Source: Actinomycetota bacterium
GTDB lineage: Bacteria; Actinomycetota; Thermoleophilia; Gaiellales; Gaiellaceae
Reading direction: 5' to 3'
Assembly: GCA_046730515.1 (NCBI GenBank)
Contig: JBKPJA010000007.1
Location: forward strand, 1-42,651
Length of the DNA: 42,651 bases
The notes beneath the pieces were generated by a model, which searched no databases, was not told the origin of the DNA, and saw only the letters and a list, made by a program, of their open reading frames with translations. Position 1 is the stretch's first letter, and the number at the start of each line of letters is the position of its first letter. The translations under genes and the position numbers were made by a program. Positions 886 to 17,308 of this stretch are shown here, piece after piece.

Positions 886-2232
886 GTGAGCATCACCGTC
901 GTCAATCCCGCGACAGTGCAGACGATCGCCGAGCTCGACGCTGCGGGAATCGAGGAGACAGACGCGGCCGTCGCCCGCGCGACGGCGGCGTTTCCTCGGT
1001 GGCGTGCCGTCACCCCGCCGGATCGCGCGCGACTGTTGCGCCGGCTCGCGTCGCTGGTCGAGGAGCACGGCGAGGAGCTCGCACGGATCGAGTCACAGAA
1101 CGTGGGCAAGCCGATCGCCGGCGCACGCGCGGAGGTCGGGATGGTCGCGGAGGTCTTCCACTTCTACGCCGGCGCGGTCGACAAGCATCACGGCGCGACG
1201 ATCCCGGTCGCCGGCGGCGTCGACATGACCTTCCGCGAGCCGCTCGGCGTCGTCGGGCTGATCGTCCCGTGGAACTTCCCGCTGAACATCTCGAGCTGGA
1301 AGCTCGGGCCCGCGGTTGCGTGCGGGAACACCGTCGTGTTGAAACCCGCAGAGTTGACGCCGCTGTCGGCGTTGCGCCTCGCGGAGCTCGTGCTCGAGAC
1401 GGGCATCCCTGAGGGCGTTGTCAACATCCTCGTCGGGCCGGGCCGCGTGGTCGGACAGCGCCTCGTCGAGCATCCCGACGTCGCCAAGATCGGCTTCACC
1501 GGCTCGACCGAGGTGGGGCGCGGCGTGATGCAGGGCGCGGCCGGGACGATCAAGCGTGTCACGCTCGAGCTCGGCGGCAAATCGGCGAACATCGTCTTCG
1601 CAGACGCCGATCTCGAACGGGCGGCTGCGTCCGCGCCCTATGCGGTGTTCGACAACGCCGGCCAGGATTGTTGCGCGCGTTCGCGCATCCTCGTCGAGCG
1701 CTCCGTCTACGACCGCTTCAGTGAATTGCTCGTCGCCGCCACGCGCGGGGTCAAGGTAGGCGACCCGCAGAGCGAGGAGACGGAGATGGGCCCGCTGATC
1801 TCTGCACAGCAGCGCGAGACCGTCGCCTCCTTCGTCGACGGCAATCCGTTGTTCCGCGGCGAAGTTCCCGCTGGACCCGGGTTCTGGTTTCCGTGCACCC
1901 TTGTCGAGGCGACCAACGACGACCGCGTTGCGCGCGAGGAAGTGTTCGGCCCGGTCGCGGCGCTGATCCCCTTCGACGACGAGGACGACGCGATCCGAAT
2001 CGCGAACGACACGCCGTACGGCCTGTCGGGGTCGATCTGGACGGAGAACGGCGCGCGCGCCTTGCGTGTCGCGCGGGCCCTCGAGACCGGAGTGCTGTCG
2101 ATCAACTCCAATACGTCGGTGCGGCCGTCGACCCCGTTCGGCGGCTTCAAGCAGTCGGGCTTCGGCCGTGAACTCGGGATGCACGCGCTCGACGGTTACT
2201 CGGAAGTGAAGAACGTCTTCGTGGCGATGTGA
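886..2232 (+). CDS. NAD(P)-dependent aldehyde dehydrogenase
   Basis: 448-aa ORF with a GTG start. It has the ALDH motifs GFTGST, ELGGKS and the catalytic-Cys region GQDCCARSR. Confidence 0.9.
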   Translation: MSITVVNPATVQTIAELDAAGIEETDAAVARATAAFPRWRAVTPPDRARLLRRLASLVEEHGEELARIESQNVGKPIAGARAEVGMVAEVFHFYAGAVDKHHGATIPVAGGVDMTFREPLGVVGLIVPWNFPLNISSWKLGPAVACGNTVVLKPAELTPLSALRLAELVLETGIPEGVVNILVGPGRVVGQRLVEHPDVAKIGFTGSTEVGRGVMQGAAGTIKRVTLELGGKSANIVFADADLERAAASAPYAVFDNAGQDCCARSRILVERSVYDRFSELLVAATRGVKVGDPQSEETEMGPLISAQQRETVASFVDGNPLFRGEVPAGPGFWFPCTLVEATNDDRVAREEVFGPVAALIPFDDEDDAIRIANDTPYGLSGSIWTENGARALRVARALETGVLSINSNTSVRPSTPFGGFKQSGFGRELGMHALDGYSEVKNVFVAM

Positions 2233-2999
2233 TGGCCCGTCTCGAAGGCAAGGTCTGTGTGATCACCGGCGCCGGCGGGGGAATGGGCCGAGAGGCCGCG
2301 CTCCTGTTCTGCGACGAGGGCGCACGCGTCTGCGCTGCGGACATCGACGGTGCCGCGGCCGAGCAGACCGCCTCGGACGCACGCGACGCATTCGCGGTGC
2401 AGGTCGACGTCGCCGATCCGGAGAGCGTGAGGCGGATGTACGACGAGACCGCCGAGCGGTACGGCGGGATCGACGTCCTCTACAACAACGCGGGGATCTC
2501 CCCCGCAGACGACGGTTCGATTCTCGAGACGGAAGCGGATGCGTGGCAGCGGGTCCAGGACGTGAACACGAAAGGCGTCTACTTGTGTTGCAAGCACGGC
2601 ATCCCGCATCTGCTCGAGCGAGGGGCAGGATCGGTCATCAACGTCGCCTCGTTCGTCGCGCTCGTCGGCGCTGCGACGTCGCAGATCTCCTACACCGCGT
2701 CGAAGGGAGCCGTTTTGTCGCTGAGCCGTGAGCTGGCGGTGCAGTTCGCGCGGCAGGGGATTCGCGTCAACGCGCTCTGCCCAGGCCCCGTCGAGACGCC
2801 GCTCCTCCTGAGGATCTTCGGCGACGACCCGGCGGCCTACGAACGGCGGCGCGTGCACTTGCCGATGGGACGACTTGCGAAACCGCGCGAGATCGTCAAC
2901 GCCGCGCTGTTCCTTGCGAGCGACGAGTCGTCGTATGTGACCGGTGCAACCTTCCTGGTCGACGGCGGCCTCACGGCTGCGTACGTCACCCCTGAGTAG
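2229..2999 (+). CDS. SDR family oxidoreductase
   Basis: Has TGAGGGMG (TGxxxGxG), NNAG and YTASK (YxxxK) motifs. Its start (GTG 2229 or ATG 2232) overlaps the ALDH stop codon. Confidence 0.9.
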   Translation: MMARLEGKVCVITGAGGGMGREAALLFCDEGARVCAADIDGAAAEQTASDARDAFAVQVDVADPESVRRMYDETAERYGGIDVLYNNAGISPADDGSILETEADAWQRVQDVNTKGVYLCCKHGIPHLLERGAGSVINVASFVALVGAATSQISYTASKGAVLSLSRELAVQFARQGIRVNALCPGPVETPLLLRIFGDDPAAYERRRVHLPMGRLAKPREIVNAALFLASDESSYVTGATFLVDGGLTAAYVTPE

Positions 3000-3054
3000 T
3001 GGGAGGCGCCGAGATGGGTTTCCCGTCGTCTCGGGCGCTACGCTCCGTGTGCCG

Positions 3055-3140
3055 GCGGGCGTGGCGGAATTGGCAAACGCGCTGGGTTTAGGTCCCAGTG
3101 GGGCGCAAGTCCCTTGGAGGTTCGAGTCCTCTCGCCCGCA
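3055..3140 (+). tRNA. tRNA-Leu (anticodon TAG)
   Basis: Manual cloverleaf fold. Acceptor GCGGGCG/CGCCCGC; anticodon stem CTGGG/CCCAG with loop TTTAGGT; 17-nt long variable arm; T-arm GGAGG-TTCGAGT-CCTCT; discriminator A. No CCA is encoded. Confidence 0.9.
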
Positions 3141-3264
3141 CTCCCGTCGAAAGTCCGGCCGCTTTCGCAGCCATGACGACTTTCGAGGGGGCATTCTCGC
3201 GACAAGCGTGAGTGAGCCGCGGCCGCGCATGTCGGCCGCGACGGCAGATGTATTCAGTGTGTGC

Positions 3265-3522
3265 ATGGCACAGCGGTCGCCGAGCAATCTGCCGCTCTGG
3301 GCGCGGGCCTATCGCGCCGCGTCGTCGGCGACCCTCCTCATGCTGATCCTCGGCACGCTTGCGGCTGCCGCCCGGCAACGTTTTGGGGCTTATCTCTTGA
3401 TCGCTTATCTCGTGGTGCAAATCGGACTCCACATCGGGATTGGTCTTTACGGCTACCGCGAGGTGATGGGGCGGGAGTGGCCTGCCGTTCCCCCGCTATC
3501 CGACGACGACGACGACGATTAG
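3265..3522 (+). CDS. hypothetical small membrane protein with poly-Asp C-terminus
   Basis: This is the 3' part of ORF 2944..3522, downstream of the tRNA. It has two hydrophobic segments (ATLLMLILGTLAAAA, AYLLIAYLVVQIGLHIGIGLYGY) and ends in DDDDDD, encoded by (GAC)5GAT. No clear SD; start uncertain (ATG 3229 is also possible). Confidence 0.35.
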   Translation: MAQRSPSNLPLWARAYRAASSATLLMLILGTLAAAARQRFGAYLLIAYLVVQIGLHIGIGLYGYREVMGREWPAVPPLSDDDDDD

Positions 3523-3525
3523 CGA

Positions 3526-4107
3526 TTAACCGACGAGGCGCTCGATTTTCGTTGCCGCCCGCGCCAGCGCCGCCTCGTCGAAGAGGTACGGCGTCGCGTT
3601 CGCCAGCCGGTGCGTCGGTCCGTCGAGGTCGTCGCTGCCGTCCCCGGCGTTGATTGCATAACGAAGAGGGATCTCGTGTGTGACCACGAGGATTTGCGAT
3701 TCGGGGCGATCGATCAACCTGCGGTACGCGCGCGCGTATCGGCGCGCCGCGTCGTTCAACGACTCTCCACCGGGAAAGACATCGTCGCGTGTATGACCCC
3801 GTTTCCAGTCGCGATAGTCGTCGAGCGTCTTCCCTTCGAGCTCGCCGATGTCGATGTCGTCGAGCAACGGCTCGGTCTCGAAGGGCACATCGCGTCCGGC
3901 GAGCGCGATCTCCGCGGTCTCGCGCGTGCGGCCGAAGCGTGAGTGCACGCAGACCTCGATCGGAACGTGCGCGACCTGTCGCCCGAGGAGTCGGGCCTCG
4001 TCGCGCCCCTTGGCGGTCAACGCGACGGGCACCGATGGATCGCCGTTCACCCGGCGCTCCAGGTTGAGTGTGGACTCGCCGTGGCGCGCGACGACGTAGA
4101 GACGCAT
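3526..4107 (-). CDS. histidine phosphatase (phosphoglycerate mutase) family protein
   Basis: Has the RHGES catalytic motif directly after the proposed start (MRLYVVARHGESTLN) and a downstream VVTHEIPLR His motif. I chose ATG 4107 over the ORF-track start 4152. Confidence 0.8.
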   Translation of the reverse strand: MRLYVVARHGESTLNLERRVNGDPSVPVALTAKGRDEARLLGRQVAHVPIEVCVHSRFGRTRETAEIALAGRDVPFETEPLLDDIDIGELEGKTLDDYRDWKRGHTRDDVFPGGESLNDAARRYARAYRRLIDRPESQILVVTHEIPLRYAINAGDGSDDLDGPTHRLANATPYLFDEAALARAATKIERLVG

Positions 4108-4145: not shown

Positions 4146-5486
4146 ATGGCACCTGTCGTCGAGCAGCTTCCGGACAACAAAGTCCGCATTACCGTGGACG
4201 TCTCGCGCGAGGACGTCCACCATGCAGTCGAGCACGCAGCCTCCGACCTCGCCGCGAGCGTCAAGATCCCGGGCTTTCGGAAGGGCAAGGTGCCGCGCCC
4301 GGTGCTGGTGTCGCGCATCGGCAAGGAGCGCCTCTACACCGAGGCAATCGAGAGTCACATCGGCGGCTGGTACGGGAACGCGGTCGCGCGCGCAGGGATC
4401 CGTCCCGCCGACCGTCCCGAGCTCGACTACGAGCTGCCGGCTTCGGACAGCGAGGACTGGCGCTTCACCGCGACCGTCCCTGTGCTGCCCAAGCCCGAGC
4501 TACCCGACTGGACGCAGCTCGAGGTCGCGGCGCCAGAAGGGGAGGTGCCGGTGGAGCTCGTCGACGCGGAGCTGGACGTGCTGCGAGGGACCGTTGCGGA
4601 GCTTGTCCAGGCGGATCGGGCCGCGCAACCCGGCGACACGGTGGTCGTCGACCTCGTTCGTGAGGACGGCGACAGCAGCCAGCGCGACTACGTCGTCGAG
4701 CTCGGCTCCGGGCGGCTGATTCTCGAGCTCGAGGAGCAGCTCGTCGGTATGTCCCCCGGGGAGACACGGGAGATCCGGTTCGAGGTACCGGGCGACAACC
4801 TCGCGATCGTGCAGGCGACCGTCAAGGAAGTGAAGGAGAAAGTCCTGCCGCCGCTCGACGACGAGCTGGCGCGGGCTGCGTCAGAGTTCGACACCCTGGA
4901 CGAGCTGCGCTCGGAGATCGAGGGTCGTCTCCAGGCGCAGCTGGACGCGCAGGCGAAGGAGGCGCTGCGCCGAAACGCTCTTGACGCACTCGTCGAGGCA
5001 GCGAGAGTCGATCCATCCGGCCCGCTGGTCGATACGCGCACGCGGACGCTGCTGCGCGAGCTCGACGAATCGATGCGCCGCCGAGGCGGCACGCTCGACA
5101 CCTATCTCCAGGTAACCAACACATCGGCGGAGGAGTTGGTCGCGCGGGTCCACGAAGAGGCAAAGCGGTCGGTTGCGGGCGAGCTCGTGCTCGAGGCGGC
5201 GGCCGACCAGCTCGGAATTGAGGTCTCCGACGAGGACGTCGACGCTTCGATTCGCGAACGGTTCGAGGAACCCGAACGAGTGATCGCGCAGCTCCGCGAG
5301 AGCGGCGTGTACGAGCAGGAGCGTCAGAGCCTGCGCATGGCCCGCGCGCTGGATCGCATCGCGGCGGAGGTCAAGCCGATCTCACTGGAGCAGGCCGAGG
5401 CGCGTGAGGCAATCTGGACCCCGGACAAGGAAAAGCCCAAGACCGAGACGAAACTGTGGACCCCCGGCAGCAAGGAGCGTGCATGA
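4146..5486 (+). CDS. tig: trigger factor
   Basis: Has the ribosome-binding signature GFRKGKVP near the N-terminus. The 446-aa length and its position upstream of clpP-clpX also fit. Confidence 0.9.
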
Positions 5487-6076
5487 CCCCTGAGAATCTC
5501 GTCATCCCGTCAGTCATCGAGCAGACCTCGCGAGGCGAGCGTTTCTTCGACATCTACTCGCGACTGCTCAACGAGCGGATCATCTTCCTGGGTACCCCGA
5601 TCGACGATCAGGTTGCGAATCTCACAATCGCCCAGCTGATCCATCTCGAGTCGGAAGACCCCGACAAGGACATCTCCATCTACATCAACTCGCCGGGTGG
5701 CCAGGTGTACTCCGGGCTGGCGATCTACGACACCATGCAGTTCATCAAGCCCGATATCCAGACGATCTGCGTCGGGATCGCCATGTCCATGGGCGCGGTG
5801 ATCCTCTCCGGGGGAACGGAAGGGAAGCGGCTCGCGCTGCCGAACGCCAAGATCCTGATCCACCAGGTCTCAGGGGGGTTCCAGGGGCAGGCGACGGATA
5901 TCGAGATCCAGGCGCGGGAGACGATCGCCCTCAAGCGCCGGCTCGAGGAGATCCTGGCCGAGCACACCGGGCGCGACCAGGAGCAGGTGGCCAAGGACAT
6001 GGAGCGGGACTACTTCATGACCTCGCAAGAAGCGCTGGAGTACGGCATCATCGACAATGTGATCGCGCATCGGTAG
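5483..6076 (+). CDS. clpP: ATP-dependent Clp protease proteolytic subunit
   Basis: Strong ClpP similarity ([27 protein letters not shown] catalytic Ser region, LIHQ). ATG 5483 overlaps the tig stop codon (ATGA). Confidence 0.95.
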
Positions 6077-6109
6077 ACGGATCCGGCGCGACGTACTAAA
6101 AGGAGACCC

Positions 6110-7378
<1,269 letters not shown>

Positions 7379-7387
7379 GGTTCGCCG

Positions 7388-10300
7388 TTACTCCTCCGGC
7401 TCGCGCCGGATCTTTAGCCCTTTCGGCTTCACGGACAATCGGCGTGCCGCGACGTGCCTCTCCGCTCGTCGAGGCCGCTTGACCTCGGGCTGGGCGCGCT
7501 CCGGAGGCTGCGGTGGGAGGTGCACCCAGGTCGCCCGCGACGGGACGCCGTGCCTTTCCGTGATGAACAGCATGTACCAGCCGGGCGGTGCGATGTTCGG
7601 CTCTCGCGGGATGCGCACTTCGAGACGGCAGAAAGTGCGCCGCGCGATCGGGAGGTCGACGAGCCGTTGCTCCGTGTCGACGGAATGTGTGGTCGCCATG
7701 GGGCGGATGAGCTGGGCCCAGCGAATGTCGCGCGCCTGAGGCGTGTGGATCTCGATCGTCTCGCCGTAAGCGACGTGGTGCGGCGCCTCGTCGATGAAGG
7801 GCCGCGGACCCTTGAACAAATAGGGCGGGTGGTAGAGCTCGAGCCTGAGCTCGTCATCGCGCCGATGCGGGTTGGAACCGGCTGTGATCACGCGTGCATC
7901 GGGGAGAAGCAACGCCACCGAGTGGTAGAGCCGTGGAACAGTCGCCTTTGCCCCGAGCACCCAGTTCCCTGAACCGGGGTGGTAGGTCTCGGCATACAAC
8001 GCGGCTTGCGTCGGATCTTCACCCGCGCCGCTGCCGCCGGTCGCCACCACCGTGCGGTCCGGAAGGATGACTGCGTTCACGTGCATTCGCGCTTCGTGCA
8101 GGCTCCCTGTTGCGACGTACTTCTTCGTCGCAGCGTTGAGATCGATGACATGCGCAGCGGTGATCGCCGGATCTCCGCCGCCGAGGATGAGGACCTTCTG
8201 CTCCTGTGCCGGCGGTAGGAGGACGCTGGCGCCCTGGTCGCGATGGTCGAGATCGAACGACGCGGGGATCGTGACGCCCGTGAGCCCTGCACCAGGGTTG
8301 GCGAGGTTCAGGATTCCCGGCTTGAGCCCGCCGCTCCCGCCGAGGTGGGCACCGCTGTAGAAGATGCGGCCGTTCTTGAGCAGCGTGAGGTGGGGGTAGA
8401 GCGGCCAGCCTTGCCCGGCCTGCTGGCGGGTCCAGCCGGTTACGGATGAGTAGATCTCATCGCGATTCGGCCCACCGGACGTAACGAGGATGCGACCGTC
8501 GCCCAGCGTCAAGAGCGTCGGGTACCAGCGACCCTCGGCCATGTCCTGCACACGGATCCAGTCTTCGGAGGCGGGATCGAAGAAGTAGCCGTCCGGCAAT
8601 CCGGTGAAGCCGTAATCCTTCGTTCCGCCGGCGACGAAGAGACGTCCGTCCGCAAGGAAGGACTGGCCGGCGCAGAAGAAGTCGGTCGGTGTGAACGGCT
8701 GGTAGAACGAGCCGTGCTCGTAATCCCAGACGATGCTGCGCAAGCCGGTCGTGTAGAGCTCGTCGTTCCCGGAGCCGGCGAAGAAGAGAATCTTCCCGGT
8801 GTGCATGAGCGCAGCGTGAACGGCCAGGACTTGCGAGTCGCAAGGCAGGAGCTCCCACACGCCCTGCGTGGCCGCCTCGCTCAGGTCGAGCGGGGTCGCT
8901 GTCATTCCTCCCATGCCGCTCATCGGTCCCATGGGAGGCGGCGGCGCAGGCATGACGTGCGGCGACGGCATCGTCATCGTCTCGCCGTCCTGCTTCGGTT
9001 TCCCGCCGTCACGCGGCCGCTTGCGCGGGCGGCAGCGGTAGATGTCCACGACGGGACATTCGTTCGCGCCGTCGTCGAGCGGTAGCGTCAGCGGAAGCGC
9101 CTTCAGTGCGTCTTCCGTCAGCCACACCCACTCATGTGCGCGAACGAGTCCGGCGAGTCCGCGCATCATGTGCTCCTCGATGTGACAGTGAAAGAGGAAG
9201 TCGCCTTTCACACGGACTCGGCAGGCGTCCGGCGGTGGGTCGCACTGCAGCTCCTCGAGCTCGCACGGTAGTCGGAGTGCGCGCGGCACTTCGGTCTCCG
9301 TGACAAAGCTCTCGACCGGACTCAAACCGTGCACGTCGGCCGCACCGCCCGGGGGTTTCGGTAGTCGCCAGCGCGCCGAGTGCGGATGGAAGTTGTGCCA
9401 GACGCCCGCCAGGTCGAGGTTGAAGAGGAACCAGCGGAGGTGTTGACGGCTCTGGGCGACGATAGTCGGGGTATTGCCAACGAAAGCACGGCCGTTCAGG
9501 CAGAACGTGGAGGCGCCGCCACCGTCGGAGACGACGATGTGGTCGTGGTTCGCCTCGGTTTCGTCGTTTCGCCACGTCACGGTCGTGCCGGGAGGAACCT
9601 GCAGGATCTGCGGCTTCCACTGGTTGTCGATCGCTCGGATTTGAGGCGGCGGCCCCGGCGCGGGCGCTCCGGCGCTTACCTGCACCTCGCCCCACATCGT
9701 CGGGCCGTGGATCTGGCAGTGGTACCGACACGTCCCCTCATCGGTGCCGAACGGGAACTGAAACGTGTCTCCCGGCGTCAGCGTGTTGCTGAGGAAGCTG
9801 CACTCGATGCCCGTCCCCACCATCTCATGGACGAACATCGGCACCTCGTGATCCGGGCACGGAGCCGCGGGATCGCGAACGATGAGCCCACCGAAGAGCC
9901 CGCGGTTGACCATTTGCGCGACGTTGTGGGAGTGGTCGTGGAATGCCCACGCGCCGATCGTTTCCTCGGTCGCGTCGAACACGTATGTCCAGCGCTCTCC
10001 CGGACGAATCTCGTCACTCCTCCGCCCGTCCGGGGCGTGCACGCCGAACGGCCACGCTCCATCGGAGTCGATCCCGTACTTGACGCCGTGGACGTGGAAG
10101 CTGTGGCACGCATCGGGATCGCCGTTCAAGACGTGGATGTGGAGGCGCTCACCGGGACGGGTCCACAGAAGGGCCCCGGGAACGCGCCGGTTCCACGGCG
10201 GCTCGTTGACGTCGGCGGGCACCAGCTTCGCTGTATTGGGAACGGTGTAGTCCGGGTCGAGGTACTCGCGGTAGACGATCGCGTTGACGGTCGCGGCAGC

Positions 10301-10450
10301 GATCTCCTGCGGAGAGACACGGCCGAGTTCATGGCCCTCGTTGAACATGCAGTCGCGGCCGAAGCGGCGCGCACACGTGACAGGCGCAAGTGGGCTGTAC
10401 CGATCGAGCGGCTCGATCTTGAGAAAGGTGTCCCGACGGCTCGGCTCCAC
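7388..10450 (-). CDS. fusion protein: multicopper oxidase (with inserted blue-copper-like loop) + Met-rich linker + galactose/glyoxal-oxidase-like copper radical oxidase with DUF1929-type C-terminal domain
   Basis: A single open frame carries both modules. MCO ligand motifs: FHVHG, FHDH, HNFHPH, HCHIEEHMMRGL. CRO ligand motifs: FFCAGQ, RWYPT, LYHS, ATTHSVDTEQR, plus repeated GDGR/DGR Kelch-like blades. I propose GTG 10450 as the start, preceded by AGGAGA; ATG 10348 is an alternative. The ORF-track extension to 10816 overlaps the LLM gene and was rejected. Confidence 0.8.
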   Translation of the reverse strand: MEPSRRDTFLKIEPLDRYSPLAPVTCARRFGRDCMFNEGHELGRVSPQEIAAATVNAIVYREYLDPDYTVPNTAKLVPADVNEPPWNRRVPGALLWTRPGERLHIHVLNGDPDACHSFHVHGVKYGIDSDGAWPFGVHAPDGRRSDEIRPGERWTYVFDATEETIGAWAFHDHSHNVAQMVNRGLFGGLIVRDPAAPCPDHEVPMFVHEMVGTGIECSFLSNTLTPGDTFQFPFGTDEGTCRYHCQIHGPTMWGEVQVSAGAPAPGPPPQIRAIDNQWKPQILQVPPGTTVTWRNDETEANHDHIVVSDGGGASTFCLNGRAFVGNTPTIVAQSRQHLRWFLFNLDLAGVWHNFHPHSARWRLPKPPGGAADVHGLSPVESFVTETEVPRALRLPCELEELQCDPPPDACRVRVKGDFLFHCHIEEHMMRGLAGLVRAHEWVWLTEDALKALPLTLPLDDGANECPVVDIYRCRPRKRPRDGGKPKQDGETMTMPSPHVMPAPPPPMGPMSGMGGMTATPLDLSEAATQGVWELLPCDSQVLAVHAALMHTGKILFFAGSGNDELYTTGLRSIVWDYEHGSFYQPFTPTDFFCAGQSFLADGRLFVAGGTKDYGFTGLPDGYFFDPASEDWIRVQDMAEGRWYPTLLTLGDGRILVTSGGPNRDEIYSSVTGWTRQQAGQGWPLYPHLTLLKNGRIFYSGAHLGGSGGLKPGILNLANPGAGLTGVTIPASFDLDHRDQGASVLLPPAQEQKVLILGGGDPAITAAHVIDLNAATKKYVATGSLHEARMHVNAVILPDRTVVATGGSGAGEDPTQAALYAETYHPGSGNWVLGAKATVPRLYHSVALLLPDARVITAGSNPHRRDDELRLELYHPPYLFKGPRPFIDEAPHHVAYGETIEIHTPQARDIRWAQLIRPMATTHSVDTEQRLVDLPIARRTFCRLEVRIPREPNIAPPGWYMLFITERHGVPSRATWVHLPPQPPERAQPEVKRPRRAERHVAARRLSVKPKGLKIRREPEE

Positions 10451-10453
10451 GAT

Positions 10454-10522
10454 GTCTCCTGACGATCGCAGCGACGGGTGACTATCCCAGGCTCGCCGCC
10501 AAAAGACAAGGAAGCAGGAGAC
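10454..10522 (-). promoter_or_regulatory. long-range anti-SD/SD stem in the LLM-oxidase intercistronic spacer
   Basis: On the minus-strand RNA, GUCUCCUG sits 2 nt after the LLM stop (plus coordinates 10515-10522). It is perfectly complementary to CAGGAGAC (10454-10461), which contains the SD of the GTG 10450 start. Confidence 0.4.
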
Positions 10523-10524
10523 TG

Positions 10525-11316
10525 CTAGCGAGGCGGACCGGCGGCTACCAGCCGAAGCATCTCGTCGAGCGGACCGCGGCGGTCGTGCAGGCTTTCGAGC
10601 CACCAGGTCGCTCCCGCGCGCTCGAACTCGCGCGGCAGGATGCGGTCCTGATAACCGATCACGGCGACGTCGAAGTCGCTGCGGCCGATCGTCTCGATCG
10701 CACGTGCCACGTCGTCCCCGGACAACGTCATTCCGGTGGGATCCGAGCTGTCCGCGCACCAACCGTCCCAGCGCGCCGCTCGTCGCAACGAAGGCAGGCG
10801 GTTGCCGCCGATCCAAATCGGCAGCGGCTGCTGAACGGGCGCGGGCGCGAGCCTTACGCCGTCGACGGTGTAGTGCTTGCCGCGATGCTCGACGACCTCT
10901 CCGGACCAGAGCGCACGTAGGACTTCGAGCCCCTCGTCGAGCATCTGCGCGCGCATTCTCGGGTCATCCGACTCGCCGAACTTCGAAAACTCGGAAGCCA
11001 CCCCGCCGAGCCCGGCTCCGAACACGACACGGCCGCCGCTGATTACGTCCAGCGTCGCGACCTGATGCGCCAGCACGTGTGGGCGGCGCCGCGGGACAGG
11101 CGTGACCGCCGTGCCGATGCGAATGCGTTTTGTCGCACAGGCAACGGCGGTCAAGGTCACCCACGGATCCGCAGCGGGGGGTCCCCAGACGAAACCCAAG
11201 TGATCCCAGGTGAAGAACCCGTCCCAGCTGTTCTCCTCGGCTGCGCGCGCGACGCGCACCGCGGCGTTGGTATCGGAATACGTGCCGATGTTCGCGAGAC
11301 AGATCCCGTAGCGCAC
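10525..11316 (-). CDS. LLM-class (luciferase-like) flavin/F420-dependent oxidoreductase
   Basis: 263-aa ORF with a GTG start. It shows luciferase-like monooxygenase family features (MRYGICLAN.., WDGFFTWDHL, FGAGLGG). The cofactor cannot be decided by eye. Confidence 0.8.
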   Translation of the reverse strand: MRYGICLANIGTYSDTNAAVRVARAAEENSWDGFFTWDHLGFVWGPPAADPWVTLTAVACATKRIRIGTAVTPVPRRRPHVLAHQVATLDVISGGRVVFGAGLGGVASEFSKFGESDDPRMRAQMLDEGLEVLRALWSGEVVEHRGKHYTVDGVRLAPAPVQQPLPIWIGGNRLPSLRRAARWDGWCADSSDPTGMTLSGDDVARAIETIGRSDFDVAVIGYQDRILPREFERAGATWWLESLHDRRGPLDEMLRLVAAGPPR

Positions 11317-11340
11317 ATGCGGAGACTAGAGTCCTGCGCC

Positions 11341-13071
11341 GTGGGGTTCACGACGCGACCGGAGCTGCGCGGCACGTTCGGGATGGTCGCGTCGACGCAC
11401 TGGCTCGCGTCCGCGGCCGGGATGTCCGTGCTCGAGCGCGGAGGCAACGCGTTCGACGCGGCAGTCGCCGCGGGATTCACGCTGCAGGTCGTCGAGCCGC
11501 ACCTGAACGGGCCCGGCGGCGATCTCCCCGTCGTTCTCTACAGCGCGCGCGACGAAGAGGTGCACGTCATCTGCGCACAGGGCACGGCGCCGGCCGCCGC
11601 GACCATCGAGCACTTCCGCGCGCTCGGCCTCGACCTCATTCCCGGCACCGGTCACCTCCCCGCGGTCGTTCCCGGCGCGTTCGACGGCTGGCTCCTGCTG
11701 TTGCGCGAATTCGGCACCTGGCGGCTCGCGGAAGTCCTCGAATTCGCGATCGGCTATGCGGAGAACGGCTATCCACTGGTGCCGAGGATCAGCGCCGCGA
11801 TCGCACAGATGGGGGAGATATTCCGAACTGAGTGGACGACGTCGGCGGAGGTCTACCTGCGTGACGGTGTCCCGACGCCCGGAAAGCTCTTCCGCAACGC
11901 GGAGCTGGCAGCCATGTACAGGCGCATCGTCGAGGAGTCGCGCGGCGGGACGCGCGAACAGGAGCTCGAGCTCGCACGTGCGCTCTGGTACGACGGTTTC
12001 GTTGCGGAGGCGATCGATCGCTTCGCGCGTACCGAGGTGATCGACAGCACGAGCCGAAGGCACGCAGGGCTGCTCACCGCCGACGACATGGCCGCGTCGC
12101 ACGCAACGCTCGAACGGCCCCTGTCACTGGATTACCGCGGTCACACCGTGTTCAAGACCGGCCCGTGGGGTCAAGGCCCGGCCTTCTTGGAGCAACTTGC
12201 GCTTCTCGAGGGCTTCGACCTCGAGGCGATGGGACGTGAGAGCGCCGGCTTCGTCCATACCGTCGTCGAGTCCGCGAAGCTCGCATTTGCCGATCGCGAA
12301 GCGTGGTACGGCGATCCGGACTTCGTCGAGGTTCCACTCGACCTGCTCCTGAGCAAGGAGTACGCAGCCGAACGCCGCACGCTCCTCGAGGACACCGCCT
12401 CCACCGAGCTTCGTCCGGGAGGCGCGGACCCGCGTCTGCCGTCGCCGACGCGGGGCGAGGTCGCCGCAGGTGTGGGAGAGCCGACGCGGGCGGGCGACAC
12501 TTGTCACGTCGACGTCGTCGATCGCGACGGCAACCTCGTGGCTGCGACGCCGAGCGGCGGCTGGCTGCACAGCGCACCCGTCGTGCCCGGGCTCGGTTTC
12601 CCGCTCGGGACACGCGCCCAGACGTTCTGGCTCGAGGAGGGGTTGGCGAACTCCCTTGCACCGCGCAAGCGCCCTCGCACCACGTTGTCGCCTTCACTCG
12701 CTTTTCGCGGCGGCGATCCGTACTGTGCGTTCGGCACGCCCGGCGGCGACATGCAGGACCAGTGGTCGCTGCTCTTCTACCTCCAACACACCGACTTCGG
12801 CCTCGACCTGCAAGCTGCGATCGACGCACCGTCGTTCCACACGAATCACTTCGCGAGCTCGTTCTATCCGCGTGACGCGCATCCGGGTCAGCTGGAGATC
12901 GAGGGACGCTTCCCGAAGGCGACGATCGCCGAGTTGCGCGAACGCGGCCACGACGTCGTCGTCACGGACGACTGGTCGCTCGGACGCGTGAGTGCGACCG
13001 CGCGCGAAAACGGCCTTCTCAAGGCCGCCGCAAACCCGCGCGGTGTGCAGGGCTACGCAGTCGGCCGTTGA
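11341..13071 (+). CDS. gamma-glutamyltransferase family protein (Ntn hydrolase)
   Basis: Has the FTTRPELRGTFGMVASTHWLAS N-terminus typical of cytoplasmic GGT-like proteins, the autoprocessing region GDTCHVDVVDRDGN, and GTPGGDMQ. GTG 11341 was chosen as start; ATG 11317 is an alternative. Confidence 0.85.
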   Translation: MGFTTRPELRGTFGMVASTHWLASAAGMSVLERGGNAFDAAVAAGFTLQVVEPHLNGPGGDLPVVLYSARDEEVHVICAQGTAPAAATIEHFRALGLDLIPGTGHLPAVVPGAFDGWLLLLREFGTWRLAEVLEFAIGYAENGYPLVPRISAAIAQMGEIFRTEWTTSAEVYLRDGVPTPGKLFRNAELAAMYRRIVEESRGGTREQELELARALWYDGFVAEAIDRFARTEVIDSTSRRHAGLLTADDMAASHATLERPLSLDYRGHTVFKTGPWGQGPAFLEQLALLEGFDLEAMGRESAGFVHTVVESAKLAFADREAWYGDPDFVEVPLDLLLSKEYAAERRTLLEDTASTELRPGGADPRLPSPTRGEVAAGVGEPTRAGDTCHVDVVDRDGNLVAATPSGGWLHSAPVVPGLGFPLGTRAQTFWLEEGLANSLAPRKRPRTTLSPSLAFRGGDPYCAFGTPGGDMQDQWSLLFYLQHTDFGLDLQAAIDAPSFHTNHFASSFYPRDAHPGQLEIEGRFPKATIAELRERGHDVVVTDDWSLGRVSATARENGLLKAAANPRGVQGYAVGR

Positions 13072-13073
13072 CA

Positions 13074-14900
13074 ATGACGCGCCGTCAACGACGCGCGCTC
13101 GAAGCGATCTGCGAGACCTTCGTTCCCGGCGCGGCAGCGGCGGGAGGAGCAGACGTCCTCCTCGAGCTCACCCCGGCAGACGATCGCCGCGCGCTGATGG
13201 CGCTTCTCTCAGTCTGGGATCTCGGTGGGCGGTTCAGCCGGCGCTCGCCTGAGCGCCGCGAGCAGATCCTCCGCGCGTGGCGGGACAGTCCACTCGCGCT
13301 TCGCCGTCGCGTCTTTCACGGCCTGCGCCGCGGCAGTCTGATCCCGTACTACTCCCGAACCCCACCGAGTAATGGTCTGTTACAAGGCGGCGAACGGCGG
13401 ATCCGACCACTCCGCGTCGATCGCCACACGCAACTCGAGTGCGACGTGTGCGTGATCGGCTCGGGCGCCGGCGGCGGTGTCGCTGCGGCCGTCCTCGCGC
13501 GGGCCGGGCTCGACGTGGTCGTCCTGGAGGCGGGCGCGCACTACGAGGACGGCGACTTCCGCTTTTCCGAGCTGGACGCCTACCGCCGCCTCTACGTCGC
13601 GGCGGCAGCGCTGACGACGACGGAAGGAAGCGTCGGTCTGCTCGCAGGAGCGTGTCTCGGTGGCACGACGACGATCAACTACACGACGTCCTTCCGCACT
13701 CCCGAGGAGGTTCGCGCGGAATGGGGCGAGCCGTTCAGCTCACGCGACTTCGACGCGAGCCTCGACGCCGTGTGCGAGAGGCTCGGCGTCAACGAGGACG
13801 AAGGACGACCGTCGAAGCGCGACGAAGCGATGGGCCGCGGACTCGGGCGGCTCGGCTGGCACGTCGAGGCGATGCCGCGCAACACGCGCGGCTGTGAGCA
13901 AGGCGTCGTCTGCGGACGCTGCGGCTTCGGCTGTCCGTTCGGTGCCAAACAGTCGACGCTCGTGACGTGGCTCGCAGATGCTCAGGCCGCCGGCGCTCGT
14001 ATCCTCGCCTCGACGCGCGCAGACAGCATCGAATGCGTAAACGGCGCCGTCCGCGCCGTGCAGGCACAAACGAGTGACGGCTACACAGTGAACGTGCGCG
14101 CACGTGCAGTCGTCGTGTGCGGCGGTGCTCTGCAGACACCTGTCTTGCTGCGCGCATCCGGACTCGAGAACCCGAACATCGGCCGTCACCTCCACCTCCA
14201 CCCGACCACAGGCGTCTGCGGCATCTTCGACGAGGACATTCGGCCGTGGGAGGGGACGATGCAGGCGCTCTACTCCGACCAGCACCGCGATCTCGACGGC
14301 GCAGGCTACGGCCTCAAGTACGAGACTGCGCCCGTTCATCCGGGAGTGCTCGTCGCATTCGCGCCCTGGGAGAGCGCAGACGAGCACGCGGGGCTCATCG
14401 CCCAGCTTCCGCATCTGACCGGCATCGGGCTCCTCCTGCGCGACCGCAGCGAAGGCGAGGTGGTAACGGGTCGGGCCGGCGGCCCGCGTGTTCGGTACCG
14501 GCTCAAGGCGGCCGATATCAGCCACGTCCGCAAGGGCCTCGACGGCGCCGCGCAGATCCTCGAGGCGGCAGGCGCGCGGCGGATCTTCTCGTCGCACGCA
14601 CGCCTGGTCTCCTACGAGCCGGGCAAGGCCACGCGCGAGCAGTTTCTGCGCGACGCGGAAGCGGTCGGGTTCGGCCCCGGCCGCTGCACGTTCTACGCCT
14701 TCCACCCGATGGGCTCGGCGCGAATCGGTTCGTCCCCCGCAACCTCGGCGACGAAGCCGGACGGCGAGATCTGGGAAGCGCGCGGGCTCTACGTAATGGA
14801 CGGCTCCTCGTTCCCGAGCGCGAGCGGCGTCAACCCGATGGTTACGATCGAGGCGATCGCGCATCTGAACGCGACGCGGCTCGCGGCTAAGCTCGCCTGA
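13074..14900 (+). CDS. GMC family FAD-dependent oxidoreductase (long-chain alcohol oxidase-like)
   Basis: Has the FAD ADP-binding motif VIGSGAGGGV and the C-terminal GMC signature FHPMGSARIG. The N-terminal RRALEAICETFVPG resembles fatty-alcohol-oxidase-type proteins. The start lies 2 nt after the GGT stop codon. Confidence 0.85.
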   Translation: MTRRQRRALEAICETFVPGAAAAGGADVLLELTPADDRRALMALLSVWDLGGRFSRRSPERREQILRAWRDSPLALRRRVFHGLRRGSLIPYYSRTPPSNGLLQGGERRIRPLRVDRHTQLECDVCVIGSGAGGGVAAAVLARAGLDVVVLEAGAHYEDGDFRFSELDAYRRLYVAAAALTTTEGSVGLLAGACLGGTTTINYTTSFRTPEEVRAEWGEPFSSRDFDASLDAVCERLGVNEDEGRPSKRDEAMGRGLGRLGWHVEAMPRNTRGCEQGVVCGRCGFGCPFGAKQSTLVTWLADAQAAGARILASTRADSIECVNGAVRAVQAQTSDGYTVNVRARAVVVCGGALQTPVLLRASGLENPNIGRHLHLHPTTGVCGIFDEDIRPWEGTMQALYSDQHRDLDGAGYGLKYETAPVHPGVLVAFAPWESADEHAGLIAQLPHLTGIGLLLRDRSEGEVVTGRAGGPRVRYRLKAADISHVRKGLDGAAQILEAAGARRIFSSHARLVSYEPGKATREQFLRDAEAVGFGPGRCTFYAFHPMGSARIGSSPATSATKPDGEIWEARGLYVMDGSSFPSASGVNPMVTIEAIAHLNATRLAAKLA

Positions 14901-17308
14901 TGGACTCGCTGTACAAGCCGCAAGGCGTCGAGGAGCGCTGGCAAGGCATCTGGGAAAGCGAGGGCCTCTACAACGCCGAGGCCGACGACCCACGGCCGAA
15001 GTTCGCGATCGCGCATCCACCGCCGAACGTGACCGGTGATCTCCACCTCGGTCACGCACTCCAACTCTCGTTGGCGGACACAATCGTCCGTAAGCGGCGG
15101 ATGCAGGGGTACAACGTCCTCTTTCAGCCGGGCTTCGACCACGCAGGCATCTCGACACAGAACGCAGTGGAGAAGCACCTCGCGGAGCAGGGGAAGACGC
15201 GTCAGGACCTGGGCCGCGAGAAGTTCGAGGCGCTCGTCTGGGACTGGCTGCGCGAGTACGGCGGGAAGATCATGCTGCAGTTCCGCCGCATCGGCGCTTC
15301 GCTCGACTACCGGCGCGAACGGTTCACGATGGACGACGCGTACGTCCGCGCGGTCAATCGCTTCTTCGTTCATCTCTACGAGAAGGGGTGGATCTATCGC
15401 GCGAACCGGATCATCAACTGGTGCCCATTCCACCTCACGTCGCTCTCGGACCTCGAGCTACAGCACGTCGAGGTGGACGACGCGCTGACGTACGTGCTCT
15501 ATCCGTTCGCCGACGGCGGGGAAGGCGGCGTGACGATCGCGACCGCGCGCGTGCCGACGATCCTCGCCGACGTCGCGGTTGCGGTGAATCCGTCGGACGA
15601 ACGTTGGCGCAACGCTGTCGGACGCGAGGTCATCGTCCCCTGGGTCGAACGGCGCGTTCCGGTGATCACCGACGAGCGCGTCGAAATCGAGTTCGGAACC
15701 GGCGCGCTCAAGATCACACCGGGCCACGATGCCAAGGACTACGAGATCGGACGCGACCATGGCCTCCCTGAACTAACCGTCATCGGTCCCGACGGGCGGA
15801 TGAACGCACAGGCCGGTGAGCTCGCCGGGCTCACGCAGGAAGAGGCCGAAACCCGCATCCTCGACTGGCTGCGAGAGCGCGGCCAGCTCGAGAAGCGCGA
15901 GTCGTATCGCCACACGGTCGCCCTCTGCGACCGGTGCAAGTCGCGAATCGAGCCGCGGATCTCGCTGCAATGGTGGTGCGCGATGGACGGGCTGAAGCAG
16001 CCTGCGCTCGAAGCGCTGCGCAGCGGCCGCGTCCAGTACCACCCGGAATCGCAGCACCGCTTCGCGATCGCCTCGCTCGAGGAAGCGCCCGACTGGAACA
16101 TCTCGCGACAGATCTGGTGGGGGCACCAGCTGCCTCTGTGGGAGTGCCCGAACGGCCACGTCATCGTGCAGGAGGCAGAACCGGACGCGTGTGCGGAGTG
16201 CGGCTCGCGCGAATTGACTCGTAGCACGGACGTCCTCGACACGTGGTTCTCGTCCGCGCTCTGGCCGTTCGCCACGCTCGGCTGGCCCGACGACACGCCC
16301 GACCTGCGGACGTTCTATCCGGGCGATCTCAACACGACCGCGCGCGACATCATCCGGCTCTGGGAGAACAGGATGATCTTCAGCGGCCTCGAGCTGGTGG
16401 GGGACGTCCCGTTCACCGACGTCGTTATCCACTCACTCGTGCACGCGCCGAGCGGCGGGCGCATGTCGAAGAGCCTCGGCACGGGAATGAATCCGATGGA
16501 CAACATCGAGCAGCACGGTGCGGACGCACTGCGTTACGGCTTGATGAAGATGGCGTCGTTGCAGGACGTGACATTCTCCGAAGGCGCGATCGAGGAGGGG
16601 CGCAAGCTGGCGAACAAGCTCTGGAACGCGAGCCGGCTCCTCCTTCAGGCGGGAGTGACGGGCGTCGATGAGCGTCCGTCCGCGCTCGAAGAGCGATGGA
16701 TCCTCGCGCGGCTCTCACAATCGCAACGCGCGATCGAGTCGTACCTCGAGGAGTTCGACTTCTCGCATCTCGTCGACGAGCTGTACCACCTCACGTTCGA
16801 CGACTTCTGCGACTGGTACCTGGAGGCGATCAAACCGCGCATCTACGCCAGCGACGCCGACGCGCTCGCGACGGCTGCAGCCGCCCTCGAGCGATTGTTG
16901 AAGCTCCTGCACCCCGCGATGCCGCACGTGAGCGAGGAGATCTGGAGCAACCTGCCTGCGCGCGAGACGCGGTTGATCGTGGCTCCCTGGCCGCAGGCGG
17001 GGGACGACACGGAGGCGTCCGCTCTGCAAGAGGTGCAAGACGCGGCCGAGATCTTCCGCCGCAGCGGCGTGCGCGTCGCGCTCGATGGAGAGCAGGCGCG
17101 CATCTTCGAAGCGGTCGTCAAGCCCGAACGCCAGAAGGCCGACGGCAACGCCGCCGTCGAGATCGAGCGGCTGCGGAAAGAGATCGCGCGGGCGGAAGGC
17201 ATGCTCGCGAACGACCGCTTCGTCCAGAGCGCACCGCCGGAGGTGGTCGACGCGGAACGCGACAAGCTCGAACGGTATCGCCGTGAGCTCGACGCTCTCA
17301 CCAGTTAG
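14900..17308 (+). CDS. valS: valine--tRNA ligase
   Basis: Has the class I motifs PNVTGDLHLGHAL (HIGH) and RMSKS (KMSKS), plus the C-terminal coiled coil. The ATG shares 1 nt with the GMC stop codon (TGATG). Confidence 0.95.
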   Translation: MDSLYKPQGVEERWQGIWESEGLYNAEADDPRPKFAIAHPPPNVTGDLHLGHALQLSLADTIVRKRRMQGYNVLFQPGFDHAGISTQNAVEKHLAEQGKTRQDLGREKFEALVWDWLREYGGKIMLQFRRIGASLDYRRERFTMDDAYVRAVNRFFVHLYEKGWIYRANRIINWCPFHLTSLSDLELQHVEVDDALTYVLYPFADGGEGGVTIATARVPTILADVAVAVNPSDERWRNAVGREVIVPWVERRVPVITDERVEIEFGTGALKITPGHDAKDYEIGRDHGLPELTVIGPDGRMNAQAGELAGLTQEEAETRILDWLRERGQLEKRESYRHTVALCDRCKSRIEPRISLQWWCAMDGLKQPALEALRSGRVQYHPESQHRFAIASLEEAPDWNISRQIWWGHQLPLWECPNGHVIVQEAEPDACAECGSRELTRSTDVLDTWFSSALWPFATLGWPDDTPDLRTFYPGDLNTTARDIIRLWENRMIFSGLELVGDVPFTDVVIHSLVHAPSGGRMSKSLGTGMNPMDNIEQHGADALRYGLMKMASLQDVTFSEGAIEEGRKLANKLWNASRLLLQAGVTGVDERPSALEERWILARLSQSQRAIESYLEEFDFSHLVDELYHLTFDDFCDWYLEAIKPRIYASDADALATAAAALERLLKLLHPAMPHVSEEIWSNLPARETRLIVAPWPQAGDDTEASALQEVQDAAEIFRRSGVRVALDGEQARIFEAVVKPERQKADGNAAVEIERLRKEIARAEGMLANDRFVQSAPPEVVDAERDKLERYRRELDALTS

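Follow-up and report, generated by a model that had tools for sequence, protein, structure and literature searches.

Can a single polypeptide hold a multicopper oxidase (MCO) and a copper radical oxidase (CRO), each with its full set of copper ligands, and if so, what would the two do for each other? The question is raised by one gene in a stretch of 42,651 nucleotides (nt) from an Actinomycetota bacterium of the Gaiellaceae (assembly GCA_046730515.1, contig JBKPJA010000007.1, positions 1 to 42,651; this whole analysed stretch is called the window below). A first-pass annotation, made from the sequence alone, had read the gene as a fusion of an MCO with a galactose/glyoxal-oxidase-type CRO. 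In the present work the gene, its relatives and its surroundings were analysed by profile searches, structure prediction and comparison of loci. The architecture is real, widespread and uncharacterised, and it is more elaborate than that annotation described.

The frame of 1020 codons was found to be uninterrupted as announced, but on the minus strand, with a GTG start at 10450 and a stop codon ending at 7388 (open reading frame (ORF) list and translation). The longest possible ORF begins with TTG at 10816 and has 1142 amino acids (aa). GTG 10450 was taken as the start because AGGAG lies 5 nt upstream of it and because the starts of homologues, 3-5 residues ahead of a conserved RRDIFLKIEPL, agree with it. 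A near-identical protein of 1020 aa (P0001) is called on a JGI contig and has 99.6% identity to the window protein by BLASTP. The gene is divided as follows, where T1 stands for a type 1 copper site and pLDDT for the predicted local distance difference test score of an AlphaFold2 model.

7388 to 10450, minus strand: whole gene of the MCO-cupredoxin-CRO fusion, 1020 codons plus stop (ORF list, translation and domain scans).
10456 to 10460, minus strand: Shine-Dalgarno-like AGGAG, 5 nt 5' of the GTG start (sequence reading).
10286 to 10450, minus strand: conserved N-terminal segment, aa 1-55 (RRDIFLKIEPL..YSPLAP..C26..GRDC34MFN.GHE.GR), nearly invariant in 56 sequences.
9851 to 10285, minus strand: MCO cupredoxin domain 1, aa 56-200, with trinuclear-centre residues H119 and H121 (FHVHG) and H171 and H173 (FHDH); Cu-oxidase_3, aligned to domain 1 of 3gdc and ceruloplasmin.
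9818 to 9850, minus strand: first strand of MCO domain 2, aa 201-211.
9518 to 9817, minus strand: circularly permuted plastocyanin-like cupredoxin, aa 212-311, with a second T1 site of C245, H248, M252 and H304 (Pfam and PDB matches of the re-permuted sequence).
9116 to 9517, minus strand: MCO cupredoxin domain 2, aa 312-445; Cu-oxidase_2, motifs aligned to ceruloplasmin domain 6.
8885 to 9115, minus strand: C-terminal tail of the MCO (C465, C473) and then a Met/Pro/Gly-rich linker (MTMPSPHVMPAPPPPMGPMSGMGGM), aa 446-522.
7811 to 8884, minus strand: seven-bladed kelch propeller, aa 523-880, with C593, W642-Y643 and Y842-H843 (phmmer and Foldseek to GlxA).
7511 to 7810, minus strand: galactose-oxidase E-set domain, aa 881-980, with copper ligand H922 (TTHSVD, codon 7685-7687); GO-like_E_set, 88 bits.
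7388 to 7510, minus strand: basic, non-conserved, disordered tail, aa 981-1020, plus stop (pLDDT <50).

Every motif that had been quoted for the two halves was located in the translation. The MCO motifs are FHVHG (aa 118-122), FHDH (170-173), HNFHPH (352-357) and HCHIEEHMMRGL (421-432), and the CRO motifs are FFCAGQ (591-596), RWYPT (641-645), LYHS (841-844) and TTHSVD (920-925); the Cys of the Tyr-Cys cofactor, placed earlier at codon 8672-8674, is C593. Pfam recognises the domain families of both halves. Cu-oxidase_3 (51 bits) and Cu-oxidase_2 (45 bits) are over their cut-offs, and the C-terminal half matches Kelch_6, GO-like_E_set at the score listed above and Glyoxal_oxid_N at 37.5 bits, which is exactly the cut-off. 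GO-like_E_set, presumably the family once named DUF1929, accounts for the DUF1929-like terminal domain expected at first. With its ligands aligned to those of GlxA and ceruloplasmin and invariant in the family, the polypeptide does hold a full MCO set and a full CRO set. The full-length AlphaFold2 model, with a pLDDT of 81 and a predicted template modelling score (pTM) of 0.79, shows a compact protein predicted with confidence.

By its modelled fold, its aligned ligands and its cofactor Cys, the C-terminal half is a member of the CRO family. In phmmer searches against the PDB it matched GlxA of Streptomyces lividans (4unm) at E 7e-81, and the aligned pairs DFFCAGQ/DLFCTGH, RWYPT/RWYPT, RLYHS/RNYHS and ATTHSVD/ASTHVTD bring the copper ligands Y643, Y842, H843 and H922 and the thioether Cys C593 onto their GlxA counterparts. 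The residues listed in the first reading thus fall on the copper ligands of GlxA, and HxxHxH and HCH fall on those of ceruloplasmin domain 6. Foldseek with the full-length model also ranked GlxA first (template modelling score (TM) 0.71, target-normalised, E ~1e-46), followed by galactose oxidase and other AA5 structures (TM 0.60-0.80). For aa 523-980, GlxA (4unm, 5lqi, 5lxz) is the best match in sequence and in structure, with the same Cys, Trp-Tyr, Tyr-His and His constellation, the stacking Trp immediately ahead of the cross-linked Tyr and the C-terminal E-set domain. The two differ in that identity is only about 29%, the inserted domain of GlxA (about residues 111-190 of 4unm) is missing from the fusion protein, and GlxA has no MCO. 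A membrane anchor and a cslA partner, both features of GlxA, were not seen for the fusion protein. An assignment as GlxA orthologue was rejected, the NCBIfam equivalog NF052501 giving 358 bits against a cut-off of 800 over aa 737-1100 of the 1142-aa ORF; the half is related to GlxA and is not GlxA. The fungal galactose and glyoxal oxidases (AA5) share fold and ligand set (E ~1e-27 to 1e-29). They need a one-electron oxidation to the Cu(II)-tyrosyl radical, which comes from separate peroxidases or chemical oxidants, and they differ as secreted eukaryotic enzymes with carbohydrate-binding or WSC-type modules which release hydrogen peroxide (H2O2) and have no attached oxidant module.

The N-terminal half appears to be of the two-domain kind, being closest in sequence and in predicted fold to two-domain trimeric proteins. 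A single-sequence phmmer search against the PDB gave 3gdc at E 1.9e-11, and a 15-sequence profile of this half gave 3gdc, an Arthrobacter two-domain MCO, as best match (6e-14) with ceruloplasmin next to it (5e-13); the other sequence relatives are A-domains of ceruloplasmin and factor V-VIII. FHVHG and FHDH align to the domain-1 motifs of 3gdc and ceruloplasmin, and HNFHPH and HCHIEEH to the domain-6 motifs of ceruloplasmin. Domain 2 carries a canonical T1 site (H352, C422, H427 and axial L432) along with the trinuclear-centre histidines H355, H357, H421 and H423. An axial Leu raises the potential of a T1 site. Modelled alone, aa 1-478 reached a pLDDT of 62, below that of the full-length model, and a fold search with this model gave 3gdc at TM 0.63, the nitrite-reductase core 6the at 0.58 and SLAC-type laccases at 0.54-0.60. 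Three-domain laccases gave just 0.21-0.30, with a root-mean-square deviation of >20 A, and a three-domain laccase with the insert as its middle domain was not adopted, since the fold search prefers the two-domain layout. In such two-domain proteins a trimer is needed, and the copper loops of the monomer model have a low pLDDT, consistent with a trinuclear centre which is probably formed between the chains of a homotrimer. The MCO had been called complete; all four motifs are indeed present, but it is complete merely in the two-domain sense, and the trimer is probably required.

The two-domain MCOs (3gdc and the SLAC-type 3cg8, 3ta4 and 4wtq) and the ceruloplasmin A-domain are thus the best sequence and global fold fits to this half. 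The fusion family differs from them by HDH in domain 1 and by a second T1 site in an insert. Small laccases are exported, SLAC by twin-arginine translocation (Tat), and the fusion family has no signal peptide. The T1 position of domain 1 is degenerate, with H171-D172-H173 against HCH in 3gdc, and for this reason a type-A two-domain MCO, with T1 in both core domains, was rejected. The motif order HxH, HxH, HxxHxH, HCHxxxHxxxxL with T1 in domain 2 agrees with that of type-B two-domain MCOs. None of types A, B and C fits cleanly, because the second T1 site sits in a permuted inserted cupredoxin. Three further residues, H116, D172 and H208 (codons 10103-10105, 9935-9937 and 9827-9829), are invariant without belonging to one of the assigned copper sites, and the first two stand where the lost T1 site of domain 1 would have been.

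The insert has 100 residues and interrupts domain 2 after its first strand (aa 201-211); the rest of that domain resumes at aa 312. Its order is C245-x2-H248-x3-M252, a Pro-rich turn and then the plastocyanin-typical half 'PGTTVTWRN...HDH304IVV'. In native order it matches only positions 64-98 of the Pfam Copper-bind profile, the last third. When the halves are swapped back (aa 262-312 followed by 212-260), positions 13-98 of 99 are matched at 25 bits, over the cut-off of 21.2, and about 30 cupredoxin entries of the PDB (plastocyanins, amicyanins, 5fc9 at E 1e-7) are matched across most of the length with Cys, His and Met aligned; the insert is on these grounds read as a circularly permuted plastocyanin-like domain. 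Its pLDDT in the full-length model is 66-94, and its T1 ligands, H304 included, are invariant in the family. This T1 site would not be directly bridged to the trinuclear centre, because its Cys is not flanked by trinuclear-centre histidines. As a separate observation, a protein of 818 aa (P0242) has tandem insert-like cupredoxin repeats, with seven Cupredoxin_1 and six Copper-bind stretches and ten stretches matched to query aa 213-297.

A comparable arrangement is known from Nmar_1354 (MCO4) of Nitrosopumilus maritimus (PDB 9cck), which matches both the MCO half and the re-permuted insert and is likewise a two-domain trimer-type MCO with an extra T1 cupredoxin unbridged to the trinuclear centre. 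There the extra cupredoxin is C-terminal and in native topology, whereas in the fusion protein it is permuted and inside domain 2, and Nmar_1354 has no CRO. Its substrate is hydroxylamine, its pendant T1 is 13.5 A from the core T1, and the core T1 is 12.6 A from the trinuclear centre (PMC11761707). It provides a precedent for an extra T1 cupredoxin which relays to a two-domain MCO. Some copper nitrite reductases, too, carry a cupredoxin or cytochrome domain as tethered redox partner (PMC7201279, PMC13324648). These (6the, 6hbe) share the two-domain trimeric cupredoxin scaffold with a fused redox partner, and the re-permuted insert also matches the cupredoxin at the C-terminus of 6hbe; they differ in having a mononuclear type 2 copper which reduces nitrite, in electrons entering from the tethered domain and in having no second catalytic enzyme attached.

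The two halves are joined by a linker whose part aa 474-522 is disordered (pLDDT <50 for aa 475-518). Its length varies across the family from 16 to 81 residues, Met makes up 10.8% of it (2.3% of the whole protein), and MxM, MPxM or MxGM motifs (MGGM included) occur in 47 of 56 linkers. In Pedococcus, Actinoplanes, Arthrobacter and Jiangellales a stretch of 100-250 residues replaces it (>200 aa in Pedococcus), and in Pedococcus L040, the copy that was read, His, Cys and Asp abound in it. Four non-ligand cysteines, C26, C34, C465 and C537 (codons 10373-10375, 10349-10351, 9056-9058 and 8840-8842), are distributed over the N-terminal segment, the tail of the MCO and the first strand of the CRO; they are conserved as a set, and they are jointly lost in this same long-linker clade. 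Because the four co-vary, a staple between the domains at the interface of the halves is suggested, conceivably an inter-domain disulfide pair or a metal site formed by all four. Together with the pTM of 0.79 in the model, this suggests that the MCO and CRO halves are held in a fixed arrangement and not as beads on a string.

The N-terminal segment aa 1-55 has no Pfam match. In the full-length model aa 4-18 form a strand which is part of the fold, with a pLDDT of about 90 over aa 1-30 and of 75-78 over aa 31-50. No signal peptide was found in any family member examined and no hydrophobic stretch at the N-terminus, where the median of the maximum 15-aa Kyte-Doolittle mean is 1.0. The strongly conserved RRDIFLK of the family, PSRRDTF in the window protein (aa 3-9, 10424-10444), looks like a Tat motif. 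Tat export was rejected on account of the charged residues after RRDIFLK, the missing hydrophobic region and the PR or PRH which replaces RR in several members. Three distant plain two-domain MCO relatives that were read begin with signal-like sequences (Tat-like or lipoprotein-like). Judging from its N-terminus, the fusion protein seems to stay in the cytoplasm.

How widespread is the fusion? A protein search gave 1033 matches at E<=1e-10, and the domain survey covers the best 120 of them. Each of the 120 combines MCO with CRO Pfam domains, identities range over 55-100%, and in about 115 the alignment spans 89% of the query or more. When one genome was scanned for each species, 74 loci were found. 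Uninterrupted full-length copies occur in cultured Nitrosospira sp. Nsp1, N. briensis Nsp8, Variovorax sp. YR216, Nocardia concava NBRC 100430, Amycolatopsis vastitatis, three Actinoplanes (one a complete chromosome), two Pedococcus and Arthrobacter sp. H35-D1, and copies in metagenome-assembled genomes (MAGs) come from five phyla, namely Acidobacteriota, Actinomycetota, Pseudomonadota, Planctomycetota (Gemmataceae) and Myxococcota. The fusion is not an assembly artefact, because uninterrupted orthologues are found in isolates and in MAGs of these five phyla. A stop or frameshift near 8890-9030, in the linker, was looked for and none is there; the linker region is open in the window and in one frame at about 45 of the 49 related genomic loci which span it. 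Four loci are broken. A single frame change interrupts L037 and L038 at the linker or directly behind it, and in L043 and L053 (Nitrosospira Nsp11) the frame shifts several times, which looks like the result of sequencing errors or of pseudogene formation. The ligand positions are invariant in a metagenomic alignment of 56 sequences, and each of the 25 ligand or cofactor positions checked is the same throughout 38 full-length copies from genome assemblies, the only exception being the axial L432, which is replaced conservatively by Met in a 39%-identical paralogue (L039).

The MCO half is rarely met without the CRO. A search with the MCO half among 1.84 billion representatives gave 91 matches at E<=1e-30, and CRO domains are present in all five scanned representatives of about 900 aa or more, down to 38-39% identity. 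This MCO type is nearly always co-inherited with a CRO, a near-obligate association. The idea that the MCO module is a general electron sink fused to various enzymes was dropped, as the representative search found CRO as essentially the sole partner. A stand-alone complete MCO of this type does exist (P0143), as do CRO relatives without MCO at 45-51% identity (L051:1020-3542 and L057:7337-9991). No N-terminal signal peptide was found in L051 and L057; one of the pair has N-terminal repeats, FG-GAP-like by eye, and the other a long C-terminal extension ending in hydrophobic, membrane-helix-like segments. A divergent fusion subfamily at 42-45% identity (P0127, P0129, P0132, P0146, P0171 and P0217) begins with an additional transthyretin-like domain (about 110 aa) and, again, has no signal peptide. 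The Acidobacteria gp4 MAG L039 carries three tandem paralogues at 2180-3769, 4195-6990 and 10144-11271; these are an MCO-only-like gene (26-28% identity) and two full fusions, one with 39% identity and one with 66%, the latter truncated where the contig ends.

Full-text literature searches found no description of an MCO-cupredoxin-CRO architecture, in line with the earlier remark that no characterised enzyme has it. Database labels are generic ('galactose oxidase-like domain-containing protein', 'FtsP/CotA-like multicopper oxidase', 'LodA/GoxA family'). Catalase-like, pfam14518 and VWA fusions, but not the CRO-MCO fusion, are listed in a 2015 survey of LodA fusions (PMC4417212).

The relatives offer hints on the substrate through the domains and genes which accompany them. 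Extra domains are C-terminal, at the place of the tail of the window protein. Among the best 120 of the 1033 homologues about 15 have LodA_N and LodA_C and about 29 have an NHL/SGL lactonase-like propeller. The LodA-like domain of Variovorax aligns to LodA and retains the Cys and Trp of cysteine tryptophylquinone (CTQ), which in LodA are C516 and W581 (PMC4417212; an offset of 20 residues in PDB 2ymw was taken into account). The CTQ amino-acid oxidases LodA and GoxA (2ymw, 3weu) thus resemble a part of these relatives in which a LodA domain follows the CRO, with both cofactor residues kept; the window gene differs in having no LodA domain. In all five LodA-type genomic loci (L020, L019, L003, L005 and L033) a LodB-like flavoprotein gene is 3' of the fusion gene. 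At L081:3004-10713, where the protein is 71% identical to that of the window, tyrosinase-VWA, copper-amine-oxidase-like and fusion genes form a tight operon. A lysyl-oxidase-like gene is directly upstream of the fusion in L084 (4635-5360) and appears again in L038 (5442-6011), and there is a faint copper-amine-oxidase match beside P0011. The fusion gene is therefore repeatedly fused or adjacent to quinone-cofactor amine oxidases of three families, LodA-like, copper-amine-oxidase-like and lysyl-oxidase-like. Genes for pyrroloquinoline quinone (PQQ) propeller proteins are also near the fusion in L082/L083 and L084. As these partners (LodA-like, lysyl oxidase, copper amine oxidase, and alcohol dehydrogenases and oxidases of the PQQ or GMC kind) all make aldehydes, a GlxA/glyoxal-oxidase-like CRO which oxidises aldehydes would fit; the aldehyde link from partner genes is a lead and not a demonstration.

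What might the parts do together? To some form of electron transfer between the modules of a single-chain enzyme with six predicted copper sites we give about even chances. The scheme that we infer, with its trimer, its inter-module electron transfer, its substrate and its cellular location, would run as follows. The chain would have three redox modules, a two-domain MCO core, the permuted cupredoxin and the CRO after a Met-rich flexible linker. Domain 1 and domain 2 would each give four histidines to the trinuclear, O2-reducing centre, the canonical T1 would be wired to this centre via the HCH bridge, and three chains would assemble through their MCO cores with each trinuclear centre between neighbouring chains. 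The substrate oxidised at the radical-copper site would more probably be an aldehyde hydrate than a small alcohol, the aldehyde probably coming from a partner amine or alcohol oxidase which in relatives is fused (LodA-like) or neighbouring. Re-oxidation would pass from the CRO site to the inserted T1, to the canonical T1 and to the trinuclear centre, with O2 going to water. In the minimal version, the built-in activator proposed by the first-pass annotation, the route would provide the one-electron oxidation by which the Cu(II)-tyrosine form, inactive as such, becomes the active Cu(II)-tyrosyl radical; in the maximal version both substrate electrons would be drained and no H2O2 would be released. 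The activator idea, an inference then as now, gains support because the second, inserted blue-copper domain could act as a relay, and it also fits because GlxA, the closest characterised CRO, depends for its maturation on a separate peroxidase, DtpA (PMC4736821). The maximal version would fit because two T1 sites are present and the protein seems cytoplasmic, a place which a water-forming oxidase would suit. Carried further, the enzyme would stand for a new mechanistic class, in which the CRO works as a dehydrogenase, its two substrate electrons pass singly via two blue coppers to the trinuclear centre, O2 takes up four electrons there to give water without H2O2, the MCO-cupredoxin part is also the sink for the fused CTQ domain, and partners complete an amine-to-aldehyde-to-acid route. 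This larger claim is tentative and we think it rather unlikely; if true, a dehydrogenase-type CRO would permit radical-copper chemistry in the cytoplasm.

Several points speak against electron transfer between the modules, and some of them lead to other readings. The trimer is drawn from fold similarity alone, and the MCO-only model is moderate (pLDDT 62). CROs are fast with O2 unaided, and internal electron transfer would have to compete with this. No neighbour gene is kept across the whole family (53 loci clustered), and loading six copper sites in the cytoplasm would be unusual. The halves can also work apart, given that a stand-alone MCO (P0143) and stand-alone CROs (L051, L057) exist, and the long disordered linker would also suit two independent modules. 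The chain may then hold two independent catalysts which exchange no electrons, the CRO making an aldehyde or acid and H2O2, the MCO oxidising phenols, amines or metal ions, and the fusion merely co-localising two steps, for example of oxidative cross-linking or of polymer/peptide breakdown. The variable length of the linker and the separate versions of both halves agree with this, the tyrosinase-VWA, lysyl-oxidase-like and copper-amine-oxidase-like neighbours are a typical oxidative cross-linking set, and lodA operons with MCO and tyrosinase genes were noted earlier (PMC4417212). On the other hand, this MCO type is almost never found without a CRO, a T1 site unbridged to the trinuclear centre is easier to understand as a relay than as a substrate site, and the pTM and the co-varying cysteines point to a fixed interface; we regard independent catalysis as possible but on the unlikely side.

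Met-rich segments are typical of Cu(I)-handling proteins and point to copper delivery, which also counts against a role in turnover. The MCO half with its linker could thus be a device for copper capture and delivery, a CueO-like cuprous oxidase with a Cu(I)-binding arm, which would drive formation of the Tyr-Cys cross-link in the CRO and have no share in turnover. The MxM and MGGM motifs of the linker, the long His/Cys/Asp-rich replacement in Pedococcus, Actinoplanes and Arthrobacter (composition as read in Pedococcus L040) and the copper supply problem which the missing signal peptide entails would all be explained, and the maturation of GlxA needs helper proteins (PMC4736821). A trinuclear centre and two T1 sites, invariant down to 39% identity, would nevertheless be costly for a one-time step, and the Met-rich segments are in the linker and not above the T1 site as in CueO, so that such a device appears quite unlikely. 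That one of the halves has degenerated into a scaffold without catalysis, such as a kelch propeller for binding only, could be argued from Glyoxal_oxid_N standing just at its cut-off and from the low GlxA equivalog score (358 vs 800 bits), but all catalytic residues of both halves are invariant across wide divergence, which makes it very improbable. An assembly join or a lost stop merging two genes, for which the four broken related loci might be cited, has a negligible chance, as the fusion is in one frame at about 45 independent loci, isolates and the complete Actinoplanes chromosome included, and the broken copies are MAGs or, in Nitrosospira Nsp11, pseudogene-like.

The electron-transfer reading matters beyond this locus. 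CROs are valued biocatalysts which are inactivated by slipping to the non-radical state, need added peroxidase or chemical oxidants, and are damaged by the H2O2 they release. A natural enzyme carrying its own oxidant module would show a solution to both the activation and the H2O2 problem and could be a template for engineering; it would, if the reading is true, be the first MCO serving as internal electron acceptor for another copper enzyme. The family also raises the questions of how six copper sites are loaded in a protein without export signal, and of what the recurrent quinone-cofactor amine oxidase partners mean for the amine and aldehyde metabolism of soil bacteria, ammonia oxidisers included. 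Cultured hosts exist, so direct testing is feasible.

In the window itself the order is clpX (convergent), the fusion gene, an LLM oxidoreductase gene and then a divergent GGT-GMC oxidoreductase-valS group. The nearest neighbour is given below.

10525 to 11316, minus strand: LLM oxidoreductase (F420-dependent luciferase-like), co-directional, 74 nt upstream of the fusion gene; Bac_luciferase, 172 bits.

The LLM gene also matches TIGR03619 at 173 bits (cut-off 167). The oxidase-rich block which had been described around the fusion is there in so far as the LLM gene is adjacent and the GMC gene near, but the arrangement is not conserved in relatives and for this reason carries little weight. Among related loci only the near-identical contig L001 has the LLM gene adjacent, and in L026 a 38%-identical LLM is about 3.6 kb downstream of the fusion gene. 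All-against-all clustering of the ORFs of the 53 loci gave no operon partner conserved family-wide; synteny is lineage-specific only, for example Amidohydro_2 in Nitrosospira and relatives. The flanks of the window gene are tig-clpP-clpX with one clpP only (4146-7378) and the GGT-GMC-valS side (11065-17308), where reading frames overlap at 13068-13071 and at 14900. The long GGT ORF (11065) overlaps the LLM gene, and the JGI call implies a later start near 11341.

Two neighbourhoods of relatives may be added. In Piscinibacter (L079/L080; 6326-7860, 13796-17369) a triple-fusion gene directly follows 2-dehydro-3-deoxygalactonokinase and KDPG-type aldolase genes, and 3' of it are genes for an aldehyde dehydrogenase, a DHDPS-like protein and a mandelate-racemase-type dehydratase, a sugar-acid context. 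A role in sugar oxidation, from the NHL/SGL lactonase-like domains and these galactonate-pathway genes, is a weak lead. In two lineages, L082/L083:1801-3914 and L084:9565-11618, the PQQ-propeller protein is followed by a small protein of 142-145 aa; the two PQQ proteins are 45% identical, and the L084 copy has a lipoprotein-type signal.

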